Origin: Candidatus Altarchaeum sp.
GTDB taxonomy: Archaea; Altiarchaeota; Altiarchaeia; Altiarchaeales; Altiarchaeaceae
Length of the DNA stretch: 22,538 nucleotides
Direction: 5' to 3'
Assembly (NCBI GenBank): GCA_018260615.1
Contig: JAGWDQ010000130.1
Location: 1-22,538 of the forward strand
The position numbers and the translations under genes are program-made. Below the pieces are notes generated by a model. The model saw only the letters and a list, made by a program, of their open reading frames with translations. It made no database searches and was not told the DNA's origin. Below, one piece after another: positions 182-22,476 of the stretch. The first letter of the stretch is position 1, and each line of letters begins with the position of its first letter.

Positions 182-1471
182 ATGAGATACGAAATAACAA
201 AAACAACATTAAAAGGAACAACAGATGCCCCGCCCTCTAAAAGTTATACTCACAGGGCAATTATTTGTGCTTCATTGGCAAACGGGCGATCAAAAATAAC
301 AAATTATCTGGAAAGTAATGATACCAATGAGACAATTCTAACATTAAAAAAATTTGGAATTGCTATGGAAAAGTCAGATAATGAGCTAAATATTTGGGGA
401 AATGAAAATTTAAATGATGTAAATGAAGGTGAAAAAATTATAATAGACACAATAAAAGAGTCCGGCTCTACTTTAAGATTTCTAATTCCTGTTGCATGTA
501 TATCAAAAATTAAAAAACCGATAATTTTTGTCAGAAAAGGACGACTAAAAGACAGGCCTGTTGAGCCATTAATGGATGCATTGAGCAAATTAGGTGTCCG
601 ATATGAAATACGCAAAGACAGGGCTGATGATAGCGAACTGATCACTATTTATCAGGGAATCACCGGTGGAAAAACAGAAATTCCGGGAAATATAAGTTCC
701 CAGTTTATAACAGGTCTTCTGTTTGCGTGTTCAAGGGCCGAAAACGACACGGAAATAAATTTAACAACCGAAATTGAATCAAAGTCATATGTAAAAGTAA
801 CCCTGGATGTCTTAAATGATTTTGGAATAACTATTGATGTATCCGAAGATATGCGAAAATTTAAAATATCTGGAAATCTGTCTTATAAAAACAGAGAATA
901 TATTGTTGAGGGTGATTATTCTTCTGCTGCATTTTTGCTTGCCGCAGGTGCAATTAATGGAGATATCATTGTGAAAAATTTAAATACAAATTCAAAGCAG
1001 GGAGACAGGGAAATTTTAAACATTCTCGGGAGCATGAATGCAAAAATTGAGATAAAAGAAAACATTATTCATGTAGAAAAATCAAATTTAAAAGGGATTG
1101 AAATAGATGCAAAAAATATACCTGATTTAGTTCCGATTTGCGCTGTGTTGGGATGTTTTGCTGACGGAGAAACAAAAATTTTTAATGCGGAGAGATTGCG
1201 ACTTAAGGAAAGTGACCGGCTGAAAGCAATAACGCAGGAATTAAGAAAGATGAATGCAGATATAGAAGAAACCAAAGACGGATTAATTATTAGAAAGTCC
1301 GATTTAAAAGGAGCGGAAATAAATCCGCACAACGACCACAGGATAGCGATGTCATGTGCAATTGCAGGATTATCGGCAGAAGGAAAAACCACAATAAACG
1401 ATGCAGAATGTGTCAATAAATCATATCCTTCTTTTTTTGAAGATATTGGGCGATGTTTCCATACTACATAG
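182..1471 (+). CDS. aroA: 3-phosphoshikimate 1-carboxyvinyltransferase (EPSP synthase)
   Basis: Motifs PPSKSYTHRA, ESGSTLRF, SSQFITGLL, LRLKESDR, HNDHRIAMS, KSYPSFF. The last residues (CFHTT*) are read from a CRISPR-like repeat. Confidence 0.97.
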   Translation: MRYEITKTTLKGTTDAPPSKSYTHRAIICASLANGRSKITNYLESNDTNETILTLKKFGIAMEKSDNELNIWGNENLNDVNEGEKIIIDTIKESGSTLRFLIPVACISKIKKPIIFVRKGRLKDRPVEPLMDALSKLGVRYEIRKDRADDSELITIYQGITGGKTEIPGNISSQFITGLLFACSRAENDTEINLTTEIESKSYVKVTLDVLNDFGITIDVSEDMRKFKISGNLSYKNREYIVEGDYSSAAFLLAAGAINGDIIVKNLNTNSKQGDREILNILGSMNAKIEIKENIIHVEKSNLKGIEIDAKNIPDLVPICAVLGCFADGETKIFNAERLRLKESDRLKAITQELRKMNADIEETKDGLIIRKSDLKGAEINPHNDHRIAMSCAIAGLSAEGKTTINDAECVNKSYPSFFEDIGRCFHTT

Positions 1472-1614
1472 TGCGATTTAAACAAATAATATCCTTCTTT
1501 TTTTGAAGATATTGAGCGATGTTTCCATAGTATATCTTATGATTTAAACTTGTCGAGACGCTACGAAGGTATTTGGTGGGTCATAGTTTCCATACTACCT
1601 GGTACAATTTAAAC
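1455..1614 (-). CRISPR. Degenerate orphan CRISPR mini-array: 3 repeats (29 bp), 2 spacers (37 and 36 bp)
   Basis: R1 1455-1483 GTTTCCATACTACATAGTGCGATTTAAAC; R2 1521-1549 GTTTCCATAGTATATCTTATGATTTAAAC (23/29 to R1); R3 1586-1614 GTTTCCATACTACCTGGTACAATTTAAAC (25/29 to R1). Spacers are 1484-1520 and 1550-1585. On the minus strand all repeats start GTTTAAA and end ATGGAAAC, like class 1 (type I-B/III) repeats, so minus-strand transcription is inferred. No cas genes are in the window. Confidence 0.8.
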
Positions 1615-1740
1615 GAAGATTTACTCACCCAATTTTTCATAAATAATTAAATTTAAATGCTTAAATATTAATAATAAAGGCCAAAAAATTAGTCCCTCTT
1701 TGGTAAACCCCTTATTGGAGATTGACTAAATTTTAATAGT
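1615..1740 (-). promoter_or_regulatory. Putative CRISPR leader (AT-rich, non-coding)
   Basis: AT-rich non-coding stretch abutting R3 on the side predicted to be 5' from repeat orientation. No sequence-level confirmation. Confidence 0.4.
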
Positions 1741-1808
1741 AAAAATGAAATGCATTTTACAGATAAAATTTAGTCGGTCAAATTTTTTACAAATTAAAAT
1801 TTAAAAAT

Positions 1809-2063
1809 TTAAAATCTGAAAAATTTAAGAAATAAGAGTCCGACAACCATAAGGACAATTGACAAAATTATTGCCAAGAGCATCGTCTCTTTATCAGTTC
1901 CAAATCCAATCGGAATCGGACCAAGCATTATAACTCCTCCGCCTTTAAAATTTCCACTGTCTTTTCCATCTCCGCTTATTATGTTCATCAAAGTTCCGAT
2001 AAACAAAATACAAAAACCGGCTAAAATTAATCCGATTCCTAAAAGTATAAATTTTTCATCCAT
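1809..2063 (-). CDS. DUF131 / TIGR00304 family small membrane protein
   Basis: Two hydrophobic segments flanking the GGVIMLGPIPIGFGTD signature. Confidence 0.85.
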   Translation of the reverse strand: MDEKFILLGIGLILAGFCILFIGTLMNIISGDGKDSGNFKGGGVIMLGPIPIGFGTDKETMLLAIILSIVLMVVGLLFLKFFRF

Positions 2064-4164: not shown

Positions 4165-5214
4165 TTAAAAGATACCTTCAATTGCATCAGTTAAAATTTC
4201 ATTCTCCTTTTCTGTCCCGACAGTTATCCTTATATATTCACCTTTAAATCCATCCAATTTTCCGAATGGCCTTACGATAATCTTTTTTTCATAAAGGTCT
4301 TCAAAAAATTCCTTCGCGGTGTAGGGAGAGACATCAATGAACAAAAAATTTGTATAACTCTCAAAAACCTTAAATTTCCTGCTTAAAATATCGCCCAGAA
4401 TTTTCCTGCTGTTTAAGACCTTTTCGACATTTTGTTTCATAAAAGCAATATCGTCCAGTGCCGCCAGTGCCGCCTCCTGTGCCAGGCAATTTACATTAAA
4501 CGGCGGCTTAACTTTGTGTAAAAATTTGATAATTTCTTTGTTTGCTATCCCGTAGCCCATTCTTAACCCCGCAATCCCAAATGCCTTTGCCATCGTCCGA
4601 AGCACAATCAAATTTTCATACTCTCCAGTTAAATCAAGAGATGTTAAATTTGAAAATTCATAATATGCCTCATCAACGACAACTACTTTGTTGAACTTTA
4701 AAATTTTTTCAATATCCCTTCTGTCAATAATTCCTCCCGTCGGATTGTTTGGGGAGCATAAAAAAACAACTCTCGCTTTTTCAAATTTCTCATCATTTAT
4801 AAATTTTTCGCAGTTAAATGTAAAGTCATCATTCAGCGGAATTTCATAATAAATTTCGTTAAAAATTTTGGAGACGCGATTATATTCAACAAATGAAGGG
4901 TAAAATCCCATGTATGGGGACTGAAAGATCTTGATTATTAATTCAATCAGTTCGTCAGAGCCGTTCCCGAGTATTATGTTTTCGGGCTTGATTAAATTTC
5001 CGCAGTATTTTGAAATTTTTTCCTTAACCAGTTCATCTTTATAAGGATAACGAAATATATCTCCTGCTTTATCTTTTATTGCAGCAATTACCTTTTCCGA
5101 AGGTCCGTAATCATTCTCATTTGACGCTAACTTGATAAAGCCCTCACTCATTTTTCCGGGAATGTAAGGCGAGACATCAGAAATCCACGGTTTAAAAAAT
5201 TTTGAGAGTTCCAT
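4165..5214 (-). CDS. hisC: Histidinol-phosphate aminotransferase
   Basis: KLASNEN, GNGSDELI, SPNNPTG, VDEAY, LRTMAKAFGIAGLRMGY (PLP lysine), YIRITVG. Confidence 0.95.
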   Translation of the reverse strand: MELSKFFKPWISDVSPYIPGKMSEGFIKLASNENDYGPSEKVIAAIKDKAGDIFRYPYKDELVKEKISKYCGNLIKPENIILGNGSDELIELIIKIFQSPYMGFYPSFVEYNRVSKIFNEIYYEIPLNDDFTFNCEKFINDEKFEKARVVFLCSPNNPTGGIIDRRDIEKILKFNKVVVVDEAYYEFSNLTSLDLTGEYENLIVLRTMAKAFGIAGLRMGYGIANKEIIKFLHKVKPPFNVNCLAQEAALAALDDIAFMKQNVEKVLNSRKILGDILSRKFKVFESYTNFLFIDVSPYTAKEFFEDLYEKKIIVRPFGKLDGFKGEYIRITVGTEKENEILTDAIEGIF

Positions 5215-5250
5215 TGTAAATTAAAAACAAATATGACCTTTAAATTGTTC

Positions 5251-5491
5251 ATCACTTGCTTATGTTCACTGCGTTAGTGTGTTTCCAAAACTTCACATCA
5301 CTTCGTTCGGAGATTTTCAAATCTCAGCGATTTGAAAACTGCATTTTTGAAATCGTTCGTGTCTTTACAAAATGCTTTGCATTTTCAAAATACTTCAAGT
5401 ATTTTGAAAGATTGAAAACTAATAGTTTTCAGTATTTATAAGATTGAAAATCTCAAAGATTTTCAGTATTCAAAAACTACGAATTTTTGAA
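5251..5491 (+). repeat. Intergenic tandem-hairpin repeat, copy B
   Basis: Core CGGAGATTTTCAAA at 5308-5321, followed by back-to-back dyads: TTTTCAAATC..GATTTGAAAA, TTCAAAATAC..GTATTTTGAA, GAAAAC..GTTTTC, GAAAATC..GATTTTC, TCAAAAA..TTTTTGA. Confidence 0.8.
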
Positions 5492-6431: not shown

Positions 6432-6794
6432 TTACTTTTTAATCTCTTTTAGTTTGTTTATAACCTCTGCCAGTATATCTTTACTTTTACCTTCTTCAAT
6501 AACACATGCTGCCGAGCACGGAACTTTTAATCCGATTGCTTTTCCGACATCTTCTTTCTTATTAACAAACAGGTAGGGTATCTCTTTTTCGTCACATAAC
6601 ATTGGCAGATGCATAACATTTTCAGGTGGAATTACATCTCCTGCAATTACTACTAATTTTGTAATTTTTCTTTCCACTGCTTTTGTTACTTCATTTACTC
6701 CTTTTTTTATTTTGCCTGTATTTTTTGCGGTTTCCAAAACCTCTAACGATTTTGTTTGCAATTCCGCCGATGCTTCAAATTTTACATAACTCAT
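6432..6794 (-). CDS. rpl7ae: Ribosomal protein L7Ae (K-turn binding)
   Basis: [37 protein letters not shown]. Confidence 0.97.
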
Positions 6795-7480: not shown

Positions 7481-8404
7481 ATGGACAAAATTTTTACTAA
7501 TAGCATAGGCAAACTTTCAAAACAAATAGGAAATTTTGCAAGGGTTGCATGTATTTTGGAGGTAACAACAGAAAAGCCCGGAAATGTCACACCAACTCAT
7601 GATTTTGCCGATACAAAATTTGAAAATTTTATATTTGGCAGCATGCTCATTGGCGATGCTGTTGAGAAGGCATTTACTGATGGATACAAAGAAAATTTCA
7701 ACATAGGAAAACGAATCCATCAGTTCGCAAAGCAGTCAAAAATTTACAACGAAACAAATACACATTTTGGAATCGTGTTGCTTTTTATTCCGCTTGCCAC
7801 TGCATTGGGAATGGCATTGGGAATGATGATGAAGGGAAATGAAAACGAAAAGAATAATAAAATAAGCGATGAAAATTTAAGGAATGCAATTACTCATGTT
7901 ATGAAAAAAACAAATGTTGATGATGCCATTTATTTTCATAAAGCAGTAAAGATGAGCAATGTCAGAGTTTCAAAAGATTTCGGTATTGATAAATTTGATA
8001 TATTGTCTGAAAATTTTATTAAAATTGCAAAAAAAGAAAATATCAATCTGTATCATCTGCTCAAAATTTCTGCTGATAAAGATATAATAGCGAGGGACTT
8101 AACAACAAAGATGGAAATTTCATTTGAGCATCTGGATTTTTTAAAAGGTATTTCAAGAAAAGATATATTGTCCCTGTATTTATTATTACTTTCAAAATTT
8201 CAGGATACTCTGATAATGAAAAAGCGCGGAAGCGAAATTTCGGAAAATGTTTCGGAGATGGCAAAAGAGGTTATTAATGGAAATTTATCTGTTGAAAAAT
8301 TTAGCGATTACCTGTACATTAACAACATAAATCCGGGAACTATCGCAGACATTACAGCAAATGTTGTGTTTTTATACCTTTTAAAGAAATTTTTATATTT
8401 TTAA
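7481..8404 (+). CDS. CitG-family triphosphoribosyl-dephospho-CoA synthase-like protein (archaeal type)
   Basis: EKPGNVT, NTHFGIVLLFIPL, INPGTIAD motifs. Confidence 0.85.
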   Translation: MDKIFTNSIGKLSKQIGNFARVACILEVTTEKPGNVTPTHDFADTKFENFIFGSMLIGDAVEKAFTDGYKENFNIGKRIHQFAKQSKIYNETNTHFGIVLLFIPLATALGMALGMMMKGNENEKNNKISDENLRNAITHVMKKTNVDDAIYFHKAVKMSNVRVSKDFGIDKFDILSENFIKIAKKENINLYHLLKISADKDIIARDLTTKMEISFEHLDFLKGISRKDILSLYLLLLSKFQDTLIMKKRGSEISENVSEMAKEVINGNLSVEKFSDYLYINNINPGTIADITANVVFLYLLKKFLYF

Positions 8405-8405
8405 A

Positions 8406-8437
8406 ATGAAATTTTTAGCGAAAAACATCAGGGGAAA
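8406..8437 (+). repeat. 32-bp direct repeat: stub copy of the pelota 5' end
   Basis: ATGAAATTTTTAGCGAAAAACATCAGGGGAAA is 31/32 identical to 10024-10055; the single difference is synonymous (AAC/AAT). Confidence 0.92.
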
Positions 8438-10023: not shown

Positions 10024-11046
10024 ATGAAATTTTTAGCGAAAAATATCAGGGGAAATTTTATAAAGGTAAAGATTGAAAATATTGACGATTTGTGGTGGCT
10101 GAACAATCTGATTGAAGAAGGTGATTTAATTAAGACAAAGACATATCGGAGAAAGAAAATGGAAGATGTCGGAAAAAGTGAAAGAGAGATGGTTATCATA
10201 AAAATTTCAGTTGAAAAATTTGAATTTAACGGGAAAATAATCCATGTTATCGGGAAAATCGTTGAGTCAAGTGATGATGATGTTCCTTTGCACAGTTATC
10301 ATTCTTTTAATATATCAGTTGATGACATTATTGCCCTTGAGAAAATTTTTAACGAATATCACATCGAAATTTTAAAAGAAGCTGAAAAAGGTAACTTTTT
10401 AAGACAAATCCTGATTGTCGTTGTTGATGAAGGAACTGCAAATATCGCATTGCTTAAAGATGTCAGAGTGGAGTATTCTGAAATTTCAGGGAATATCGGA
10501 GGGAAGAGAAATATGGAAGGCAGAGATAAGAGAAAGACGGACTTTTACTGGAATGTTTTAAATTTTATAAAGAAATTTTCTGTTTACAAAATTATAATCG
10601 GAGGGGCGGGATTTGAAAAGGAAAATTTTTATGAATTTTTAAAGGAGAAAGACAAAGAAATTTTAAAAATCTGCGTAATTGAGAATACCGGGAATTGCGG
10701 AGTTAACGGAATTAAGGAAATTATCGGAAGGAGCAAGCACCTGATTAAAGAAATGAATGTCGTTGAGGATGCAAAATTTATTAATGCTTTGATGTATGAA
10801 ATTTCAAAGGACGGGCTTTATTTTTATTCGCTTAATGATGCCGGAAATGCGTTAAATTACGGGGCAATTGATGTATTATTATTGACAAACAGATTTTTTA
10901 ATGAGCACAGGAAGGAATGCGTGGAAATAATTAAAGCGGTAAAGAACAAAGGCGGAAGGATTCATATAACGGATAGTGAGAATGAAGCGGGGATGCAGCT
11001 GGATGCGCTGGGAGGGATTGCGGGATTGCTGAGGTTTAAAATTTAA
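10024..11046 (+). CDS. pelA: Pelota (Dom34) ribosome rescue factor
   Basis: ENIDDLWWL, HSYHSFNI, VVVDEGTANIA, IGGAGFEKENF, GAIDVLLL, QLDALGGIAGLLRF. Confidence 0.96.
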   Translation: MKFLAKNIRGNFIKVKIENIDDLWWLNNLIEEGDLIKTKTYRRKKMEDVGKSEREMVIIKISVEKFEFNGKIIHVIGKIVESSDDDVPLHSYHSFNISVDDIIALEKIFNEYHIEILKEAEKGNFLRQILIVVVDEGTANIALLKDVRVEYSEISGNIGGKRNMEGRDKRKTDFYWNVLNFIKKFSVYKIIIGGAGFEKENFYEFLKEKDKEILKICVIENTGNCGVNGIKEIIGRSKHLIKEMNVVEDAKFINALMYEISKDGLYFYSLNDAGNALNYGAIDVLLLTNRFFNEHRKECVEIIKAVKNKGGRIHITDSENEAGMQLDALGGIAGLLRFKI

Positions 11047-11114
11047 AATTTAATTAAAATTTAATGTCAGAGACAAAATTTATATCTGCGAGCAGGTTTA
11101 TAATTTATTTTATT

Positions 11115-11152
11115 TTAATTTATTTATATCCTTATCATAATTTATTATATCC
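11115..11152 (+). repeat. 38-bp direct repeat, left copy
   Basis: TTAATTTATTTATATCCTTATCATAATTTATTATATCC, identical to 11580-11617. Confidence 0.9.
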
Positions 11153-11579: not shown

Positions 11580-11710
11580 TTAATTTATTTATATCCTTAT
11601 CATAATTTATTATATCCAAAATTTAATTTAATATATCCAAATATTATTTATTTAATATCCAAATTCATAATTTAATATATCCAAATATTATTTATTTAAT
11701 ATCCAAAAAT
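11580..11710 (+). repeat. Right 38-bp direct repeat continuing into a periodic ATATCC array
   Basis: ATATCC starts at 11591, 11612, 11633, 11655, 11677 and 11699 (spacing 21,21,22,22,22). Confidence 0.85.
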
Positions 11711-21703: not shown

Positions 21704-21907
21704 TTATTTCATAACGGGACATACTATTCTGATTATCAGTTTCCCGTTTTCATTTTCGACAACTTCCACACAGCCATTTTTATCTTTTGAAATCATATAA
21801 ATTTCGCCGGGAGCAAGTTTTTCAAATATTGGTTCTGCCCCTGAGATAATATGACTCTCGCCGGGAGCAAGTTTTTCTAAAGGTTCCTTTTTCTTTTTTC
21901 TTACCAT
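21704..21907 (-). CDS. Small protein upstream of vapC, candidate antitoxin
   Basis: 67 aa, co-oriented and upstream of the PIN gene; EKLAPGE occurs twice, 18 aa apart. Confidence 0.55.
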   Translation of the reverse strand: MVRKKKKEPLEKLAPGESHIISGAEPIFEKLAPGEIYMISKDKNGCVEVVENENGKLIIRIVCPVMK

Positions 21908-22352: not shown

Positions 22353-22476
22353 TATCTCCGTGTTAGGAATTACATTTTAATCATCTAAACAATTACCTTT
22401 TTTATTCTCTGTTTTTAATTCTTTTTTAGTAATTGATATTCATTGATTTTAAATGTAGTTTATCAAAGATATACAA

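Follow-up and report, generated by a model that had tools for sequence, protein, structure and literature searches.

How does a gene come to be matched by a spacer of the very array that it abuts, and does this spacer act on the gene? The question is raised by the archaeon Candidatus Altarchaeum sp. (assembly GCA_018260615.1, contig JAGWDQ010000130.1), of which we analysed a stretch of 22,538 nucleotides (nt), referred to below as the window. In this window the aroA gene, encoding 5-enolpyruvylshikimate-3-phosphate (EPSP) synthase, runs directly into a small CRISPR array, one spacer of which copies the end of aroA itself. The initial annotation of the locus had offered two readings, a CRISPR-guided regulator of aroA or the fossil of an escape from a self-targeting spacer by recombination. 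The second is close to what the comparison with related genomes indicates, while the first was not supported. The best reading of the aroA-matching spacer is that of a scar, and not of a working guide. In particular, we give an even chance to the history in which the mini-array is the scar of a self-targeting event, the break having been repaired by copying the array at its matching spacer. We are considerably more confident that, in one way or another, the structure arose as a side product when CRISPR acted on the cell's own chromosome, and that it is not a dedicated regulator. In what follows, G000 stands for this genome and G001, G002 and G003 for genomes of the same genus; contigs are numbered with a C, the window contig being C130.

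The mini-array passes as a type I-B array of the repeat family that we call family A. It is made of three 29-nt repeats (R1, R2 and R3) and of spacers of 37 and 36 nt (F' and S2) with a leader adjoining, and the natural spacers of family A span 33-42 nt (554 spacers, collected from ten metagenome contigs and from G001 and G003, which represent a G003-type population). The coordinates of these elements are given in Table 1. As the initial annotation had noticed, F' matches the last 37 nt of the conserved aroA sequence (F) at 35 of 37 positions, with the aroA stop codon falling inside R1. The alignment is exactly in register, since it runs from the first base after R1 to the last base before R1 (upstream positions -37 to 0, downstream positions 1 to 37), and its score was reached by none of 200 shuffles. 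The two mismatches (1422/1488 and 1449/1515) correspond to positions 6 and 33 of the CRISPR RNA (crRNA). F retains the ancestral TCA at 1421-1423 and carries a derived GGG at 1448-1450, and F' shows the reverse, so that, with one derived base each with respect to the relatives, each copy has changed once since the copying, which fits an old copy. All three repeats retain the 8-nt part that forms the 5' handle as well as the opposite terminus, and it is their centres that vary (corrected P about 0.003). R3 is the consensus repeat of no array in 61 genomes of the class, and S2, which looks foreign, has no match in G000, in viral contigs or in the library of 554 spacers. The leader fragment has a local alignment score of 83 for a shuffle maximum of 33, and it is unique within G000. 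It also contains, at 1724-1775, an imperfect inverted repeat of 21 nt (86% complementary, 10-nt loop), and a similar palindrome is seen in the matching segment of the G001 leader.

The relatives reveal the state of the locus before the array was there. In all three of them (3/3), aroA is directly followed by the convergent DUF131 gene, with no repeat in between, and F is homologous to their aroA 3' ends as far as the R1 boundary. The G003 sequence at the site reads ...GATATTGAGCGG and then, without interruption, TTAAAATTTAAAAATTTAAAATCTG..., that of G001 is similar, and this continuation resurfaces in the window at 1793. The segment 1455-1792 (338 nt, comprising R1, F', R2, S2, R3 and 178 nt of leader) is thus a single-point insertion in G000. 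It is bounded on the left exactly by a repeat edge and on the right by an arbitrary point within the leader, and the right junction has an ambiguity of 1-2 nt (AT). The initial annotation had seen neither the leader nor the fact that the whole mini-array, leader included, is an insertion, and it had not seen either that the case recurs elsewhere in the genome. The ancestral triplet beside F, as deduced from the relatives, is TTA. In G000 this neighbour is gone, and the flank of the presumed protospacer is now R1 (..GGAAAC in crRNA sense), which is identical to the context that the spacer has in the array itself. The initial annotation was right, then, that the DNA target has repeat sequence where a protospacer-adjacent motif (PAM) would be: a chromosomal match (35/37) is present, and a functional PAM is absent.

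The aroA protein matches Pfam PF00275 (E=8e-109) over profile positions 5-416 of 417, the match ending at residue 421; the orthologs of G001-G003 align up to residue 422-425, and 1418-1453 translates as KSYPSFFEDIGR in the aroA frame. Because the Pfam domain is complete and the lost native tail is not conserved, varying as it does among the relatives, aroA is probably still functional despite its swapped tail.

Table 1. Coordinates and main properties of the aroA locus and of the other repeat-capped loci of G000 (positions are those of the window unless a contig is given).
Feature	Position	Strand	Description
aroA (EPSP synthase)	182-1471	+	Open reading frame; last five codons and stop supplied by repeat R1
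F, presumed former protospacer	1418-1454	+	Native final 37 nt of conserved aroA sequence; abuts R1
R1, trailer-end repeat	1455-1483	-	0 mismatches to family-A consensus (C73, C139, G001); ends in crRNA sense with ATGGAAAC
F', 37-nt spacer	1484-1520	-	In-register copy of F; ancestral GAG kept (relatives GAG/GAA); derived TAA where relatives have TCN
R2, variant repeat	1521-1549	-	Six changes, all at positions 10-20; both termini intact
S2, 36-nt spacer	1550-1585	-	47% G+C, genome 33% G+C
R3, leader-proximal variant repeat	1586-1614	-	Four changes at positions 14-21
Array leader fragment, to insert end	1615-1792	-	Leader homology to ~1779; aligns to leaders of the large arrays G001:C44 and G003:C220
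Orphaned former aroA 3' tail	1793-1835	+	Would read LKFKNLKSEKFKK and a stop; collinear with the G003/G001 continuation after ...GATATTGAGCGG
DUF131 membrane-protein gene, convergent	1809-2063	-	Pfam PF01998, E=2e-15; synteny with aroA kept in G001, G002 and G003
C139			Start of a TraB-family gene, the 39 nt upstream of the repeat, found again as two 100% identical spacers; leader fragment follows
C79			33 nt with the start of a histidine-phosphatase gene recur after repeat, 29/33; the F' copy retains ancestral bases
C98			Relatives uninterrupted (...TTA / ATTCAAATAC...); exactly 50 nt inserted there in G000
C109			Gene continuous in G001 and G002; three co-oriented repeats interrupt it, leaving collinear pieces
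C87, C2			Homology with relatives ends flush at repeat
pth2	C88:30798-31198		5' gene fragment collinear with intact pth2 of G001; just 8 nt on the PAM side replaced by repeat

The repeat itself connects the locus to a known type of CRISPR system. R1 is identical to the repeat of an array of about 58 repeats that lies, in G001, directly behind a type I-B operon (cas6, cas8b/Csh1, cas7/Csh2, cas5h, cas3, cas4 and cas1), and is therefore a genuine repeat of a cas-linked array; G003 carries an array of the same kind, with at least 20 repeats. No further genome among the 61 of the class has this repeat, and an Rfam scan of the repeat returned sub-threshold CRISPR-DR matches only. In the large arrays, degenerate repeats are found at the end away from the cas genes and a conserved AT-rich leader at the other end. 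Since the leader is on the right side of the mini-array, and given this placement of degenerate repeats, the array is to be read on the minus strand, in agreement with what the initial annotation had deduced; F' lies next to the trailer-end repeat, and the crRNA predicted from it would be antisense to aroA. The window (22.5 kb) contains no cas gene. Elsewhere in G000, whose assembly is 87% complete, so that a missing gene is to be taken as not found and not as proof of absence, typing of the cas genes gave a Cas6 ortholog for the family-A repeat (contig C100, 78% identity to the G001 Cas6) and a second, complete I-B locus, of Cst type and with a different repeat, on C131; no family-A effector genes were found. 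About 2.5 kb past cas6 contig C100 comes to its end, and in the segment C100:30563-33919 the place of cas8b after cas6 is taken by a Fic-domain gene and an open reading frame of 484 aa without family match. Unlike the family-A repeat, the repeat of the C131 type has no scattered copies.

The aroA array is not alone in the genome. The family-A repeat occurs at 14 loci of G000, of which only C73 is an ordinary array, the others being mini-arrays or solitary copies. In ten junctions, namely aroA, C139, C79, C87, C98, C2, three in C109 and that of pth2 on C88, the polarity is the same: on the trailer side the repeat edge meets native DNA without a gap in every case, and the leader side, which is also the PAM side, shows leader, a filler of 8-28 nt, a deletion of native DNA, or a synteny break or rearrangement. 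The capped native sequence is usually a gene end, and otherwise a dispensable or destroyed gene. In-register, spacer-length copies of the flank are found at three loci besides aroA (C139, C79 and C98), and the copies lie in sense orientation relative to the gene at C139, C79 and C98, as the C2 junction does, and in antisense at aroA. This recurrence of one layout beside unrelated genes and in both orientations argues for a mechanistic by-product. Besides, the ancestral triplet at the PAM position is TTN in five of nine junctions, against 0.14 expected (P about 0.004-0.01).

At C98, the 50-nt insert is a copy of the 36-nt flank lacking 15 internal nt, plus one repeat; the gene-proximal copy is intact and capped by the repeat, and it is the copy still beside TTA that is crippled. 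In C109, the first repeat stands in place of 212 nt; at the other two, about 7 and about 30 nt are replaced, and fillers of 28 and 8 nt come next. A leader accompanies the scattered repeats only at C130 and C139, and at C139 the flanking genes are neighbours in no relative, which marks a synteny break. The site immediately upstream of pth2 carries a mini-array, different in each and with pth2-derived spacers, in three of the four genomes of the genus and none in G001 (C65:~10940-11060): different mini-arrays with pth2-derived spacers occupy it in G002 (C95:~2700-2860) and G003 (C93:~5210-5470). One spacer of the G003 array is an inverted copy of the pth2 start, most like the G000 allele, and the same array holds two near-identical spacers. 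The fillers found after solitary repeats gave only chance matches of 10-13 nt to the spacer library.

Several further observations concern these repeats. Two truncated 5' ends of pth2 persist in G000, and the break in one of them falls at the protospacer edge. In the C139 repeat (C139:1111-1122), ATGGAAAC contains an ATG in the reading frame of the TraB-family gene, whose start lies 1 nt beyond the repeat (M-E-T-M-I-K...), which means that a repeat cap can provide a gene with an alternative start. At C92:705-733, a gene end and a tRNA gene are separated by a solitary repeat, and a strongly decayed repeat-like sequence of 29 nt occupies the same slot in G001 (C21) and G003 (C159); this repeat thus seems older than the genus, and yet the G000 copy is much nearer the consensus. 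In G001, a mini-array at C60:6300-6740 has three full repeats and two that are cut to 24 nt and followed by GTTTT. An element resembling a miniature inverted-repeat transposable element (MITE), present in 140 copies with the end motif CACCTCNCTNNCGNTNGGAGATTT, interrupts several CRISPR repeats exactly at their centre (C109:21697-21770 and 21817-21895, C136 near 1108 on the minus strand, C79 near 40500, and C95 of G002 near 2710). Such insertions are far above what the target size would predict, and the element may be one that targets repeats. We considered whether the repeats had been scattered by hitch-hiking on this MITE and rejected it, as only 3-4 of the 140 MITE ends adjoin a repeat half and the MITE inserts into the repeats. 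A sequence of about 33 nt, ACCTTTATGTCGGGATTATTCCGTGAATCGTGC, interrupts two CRISPR arrays and another locus at contig ends (C131:~22370-22402, C73:~6520-6552 and C61:~7800-7832), and is probably the terminus of an insertion sequence landing in arrays. Finally, a separate interspersed repeat with more than 150 copies in the genome is found at 2208-2320 of the window, and also just upstream of the C73 array.

How could such junctions arise? The final structure and the state of the relatives are observed; the break, the pairing and the copying that we propose to link them are reconstructed. A type I-B system with the family-A repeat would have taken a spacer from the last 37 nt of aroA, next to the ancestral TTA, and Cascade and Cas3 would then have broken the chromosome at this protospacer. 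Breaks of this kind are repaired in archaea with type I-B self-targeting by homologous recombination or by microhomology end joining (PMC7521656). Here, the end bearing the protospacer would pair with the spacer in the array, the sole homologous copy that is not itself targetable, and synthesis would copy the array leaderward through repeat, S2, repeat and 178 nt of leader. Out-of-register pairing anew among the identical repeats would copy the spacer once more, giving F-R1-F', and a short AT-rich microhomology would let the new strand be rejoined to the opposite end of the break. The outcome would be a mini-array with its leader placed exactly at the boundary between protospacer and PAM, in a gene that keeps its whole catalytic domain and gains five codons from R1. 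Register shifts of one repeat would produce F-R-F' at aroA, C79 and C98 and F-R-F-R-F-R at C139, and a variable length of copying would account for the solitary repeats and mini-arrays at the other junctions. The junctions do have the pattern of such recombination products, with array DNA joined at the protospacer edge and polar toward the leader. Moreover, as the PAM is replaced by a repeat, the capped site would be immune to renewed attack, and the scars would be confined to gene termini, or to one destroyed gene, because only scars that spare genes survive. That this amounts to a previously undescribed escape from autoimmunity, in which type I-B self-breaks repaired from the array end up with a repeat cap, a lost PAM and transplanted pieces of repeat, spacer and leader, we propose more tentatively, at somewhat less than even probability.

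This history has to contend with several observations that weigh against it. The first concerns the array that would have served as donor: no array with the aroA spacer beside S2 and the leader was found, neither F nor S2 nor the leader occurs again elsewhere in G000, and a metagenome scan with a 26-nt core of F found no match. The main family-A array of G000 (C73) is only partly assembled, and the partial arrays are without an aroA spacer. Likewise, none of the 554 natural spacers, which come from the G003-type population, matches any capped flank (0/554), and two matches of natural spacers in G000 show AAA and ATT at the PAM position, and not TTN; four scans of viral contigs with S2 and three natural spacers, meant to define the PAM, found no matches. 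The second concerns the machinery. Csh-type cas8b, cas7, cas5, cas3 and cas1 were not found in G000 by profile hidden Markov models or tblastn (the PF09704 profile failed even on the Cas5t of C131 and is uninformative for Cas5), so that past activity of the cognate Cascade, Cas3 and Cas1 has to be assumed. The third is the contrast among the repeats. R1 is a perfect consensus, whereas R2 and R3 together carry ten changes, all at positions 10-21 and with intact termini, and both have the A19 of the G003-type repeat; with one derived change in the 37 nt of F', the difference between R2+R3 and F'+R1 is significant (Fisher's test, P=0.003). R1 therefore probably has a separate or later origin, as judged from these substitutions; alternatively, the template may have switched within the first 9 nt of the repeat, or selection may have altered R2 and R3. 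A one-step story is strained by this contrast, and needs a second event, an early template switch or later selection. Lastly, two of the three intact flank copies have lengths of 33 and 39 nt, which are rare among the 554 natural spacers (0.4% and 2.7%).

The alternative that survives best, which we nonetheless consider unlikely, reverses the order of events: a module of leader and repeats would have arrived at the aroA end by an unrelated event, and Cas1-Cas2 would then have nicked the junction between repeat and flank, so that about 37 nt were integrated as a prespacer. Capture by the integrase accounts for flank copies that are in register and of spacer length, hotspots of self-protospacers at array borders are documented in Pyrococcus furiosus (PMC5737086), and only a true acquisition, from nearby or allelic DNA, can account for the inverted pth2 spacer of G003. 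What it does not explain is the arrival of leader and repeats precisely at a gene end, nor the single repeat flanked by F' without a second repeat at C98, nor the repeats that replace deleted native DNA (C109 and pth2), nor the arbitrary leader end. It also meets difficulties of its own, in that integration duplicates the target repeat, yet R1 (consensus, G19) differs from R2 at six positions; with F' in the leader-distal position, S2 would need to have been acquired afterwards; and the in-register copies are all direct, where a capture without PAM predicts random orientation.

A second alternative needs no CRISPR enzymology at all. A prior mini-array of two repeats could have undergone a tandem duplication by replication slippage of a 66-nt unit made of the aroA tail and the terminal repeat; the units 1415-1480 and 1481-1546 align at 86%, and duplicated spacer-repeat units do exist elsewhere (the near-identical pair in the G003 pth2 array and the three identical units of C139). 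Against slippage, 6/29 positions differ in the repeat half of the unit, a far higher proportion than the 2/37 of the flank half, and R1 resembles R3 more closely than R2. The first duplication lacks a direct repeat on its flanks that could have seeded it, at each of three independent loci the duplicated flank is exactly bounded by repeat edges and has spacer length, and the presence of an array at aroA is left unexplained. We regard slippage as improbable for these reasons.

The prospect of a dedicated aroA regulator, in which the crRNA from 1521 to 1484 would tune the shikimate pathway by pairing with aroA DNA or mRNA, lethal cleavage being prevented by the repeat cap, appears to us slim indeed. 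Such a regulator could draw on a retained leader with its conserved AT-rich promoter-like block, on the handle and opposite terminus kept in all three repeats and on the Cas6 ortholog of G000; mini-arrays with pth2-derived spacers lie beside pth2 in three species, and crRNA-like regulators are known (10.1101/2023.03.03.530964). These known cases are, however, partial matches beside a PAM, at promoters and in cas loci, and here a near-full match faces the 3' coding end. A type I Cascade requires a PAM, and the aroA target is without one. Type III proteins, which the initial annotation had invoked through the rule that pairing of the target flank with the handle silences interference, were not found either: no match to the type III repeat-associated mysterious protein (RAMP) family PF03787 was obtained in G000, while control genomes scored. 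The cognate effector genes, Cascade and Cas3 included, were not found, the insertion is absent from the three congeners (3/3), and the same layout stands beside unrelated genes in sense (C139, C79, C98 and C2) and antisense (aroA).

We give just as little credence to a remnant of a mobile element whose mini-array integrated at the aroA 3' end, the 37-nt copy being an attachment-site duplication, because, even if archaeal viruses and plasmids commonly carry mini-arrays and solitary repeats (PMC6858448, PMC8616872) and other inserts of G000 are flanked by duplicated gene ends of 32-38 bp, attachment duplications flank a whole insert, where here only R1 separates the copies and the rest follows F', and because just 338 nt are inserted, with intact synteny and no element genes; or to an assembly artefact, since the copies differ at two positions and the repeats at four to six, both native junctions lie in one contig and analogous structures exist in the independent assemblies of G002 and G003. 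The duplicated gene ends in question are in the window: the start of pelota and part of its upstream region are duplicated (8406-8437 and 10024-10055, 31/32) on either side of a 1.6-kb insert, and two perfect direct repeats of 38 bp are found 465 bp from one another (11115-11152 and 11580-11617). We rejected the idea that they represent the same phenomenon as the aroA junction, as no CRISPR-repeat-like sequence is present at either.

If the repair of self-inflicted breaks from the array is indeed the origin of these junctions, its consequences reach beyond aroA. It would be a new outcome of CRISPR autoimmunity, the target being turned into 'self' by the repeat that it acquires, and it would give a testable origin to the isolated mini-arrays and solitary repeats that the literature treats as an open question (PMC13142298). 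Repair would seed new mini-arrays with a leader, or solitary repeats, and would leave deletions and rearrangements at gene ends, which would mean that natural self-targeting reshapes gene ends and gene order in an uncultured archaeon. The signature to be screened for in genomes is native DNA flush with the trailer-side edge of a repeat, sometimes recurring as the next spacer. There is also a caution for annotation: a spacer that matches a neighbouring gene need not mean a regulator.

It remains to situate the aroA locus among the known systems. The neo-CRISPR arrays of Nivala et al. (2018) are said to be array-like structures produced at ectopic sites by off-target integration, in which a repeat-length piece of the genome is duplicated around the inserted spacer. 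At aroA, the duplicated genomic segment is 37 nt long, that is, of spacer length, and the unit between the copies is a canonical 29-nt repeat. The regulatory mini-arrays of the CreA/CreR type (10.1101/2023.03.03.530964, and the Francisella scaRNA as related in PMC6990116) share with the aroA array partly degenerate repeats and a spacer matching nearby host sequence. They lie within cas loci and have a partial match to a promoter beside a PAM, while the aroA array matches a 3' coding end at 35/37, has no PAM and is far from cas, and is therefore not of this type. The solitary units and mini-arrays that viruses and plasmids carry (PMC6858448; Faure et al. 2019, via PMC8616872) and the isolated arrays (PMC13142298) consist of a leader and one to three repeats away from cas, as here. 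Arrays of the aroA kind differ in that they sit in conserved chromosomal synteny at the ends of housekeeping genes, not on mobile elements, and in that their spacers copy the adjacent flank; indeed, only 338 nt without any element gene separate aroA from its conserved convergent neighbour.

Another parallel is the acquisition of spacers from DNA beside the array. In P. furiosus, array-proximal hotspots of self-spacers are attributed to nicking at both repeat borders, and the same is cited for E. coli (Shiimori et al. 2017, PMC5737086). These spacers are likewise taken next to the array and linked to integrase nicks; they are, however, selected by PAM, come from both strands, are out of repeat register and transient in populations, and no repeats are moved into genes. 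The physical joining of array and target DNA has its own precedent in staphylococci, where recombination between spacer and target is documented (Varble et al. 2019, Nat Microbiol, cited in PMC8616872). According to that summary, a spacer of about 35 nt serves there as the homology, and array DNA becomes physically joined to target DNA, as we propose for aroA. The staphylococcal case, however, is one of recombination between phage and host that gives transducing particles, whereas that of aroA concerns the cell's own chromosome and a stable, copied mini-array, known from sequence alone.

The closest likeness is with escape from self-targeting (PMC6990116, and for the I-B system of Haloferax PMC5435918, PMC7521656 and PMC12281630), which has in common with the aroA locus a spacer matching the chromosome, an archaeal I-B system and deletions beside the target. 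The escapes that PMC6990116 and the Haloferax work relate, in the passages searched, proceed by deletion or mutation of the target, loss of the spacer or loss of cas, and our limited search of the literature found no description of a PAM replaced by a CRISPR repeat or of array and leader DNA pasted beside a target. The aroA locus is thus best described as a repeat-capped protospacer with transplanted array DNA, a variant on the theme of self-targeting and escape.

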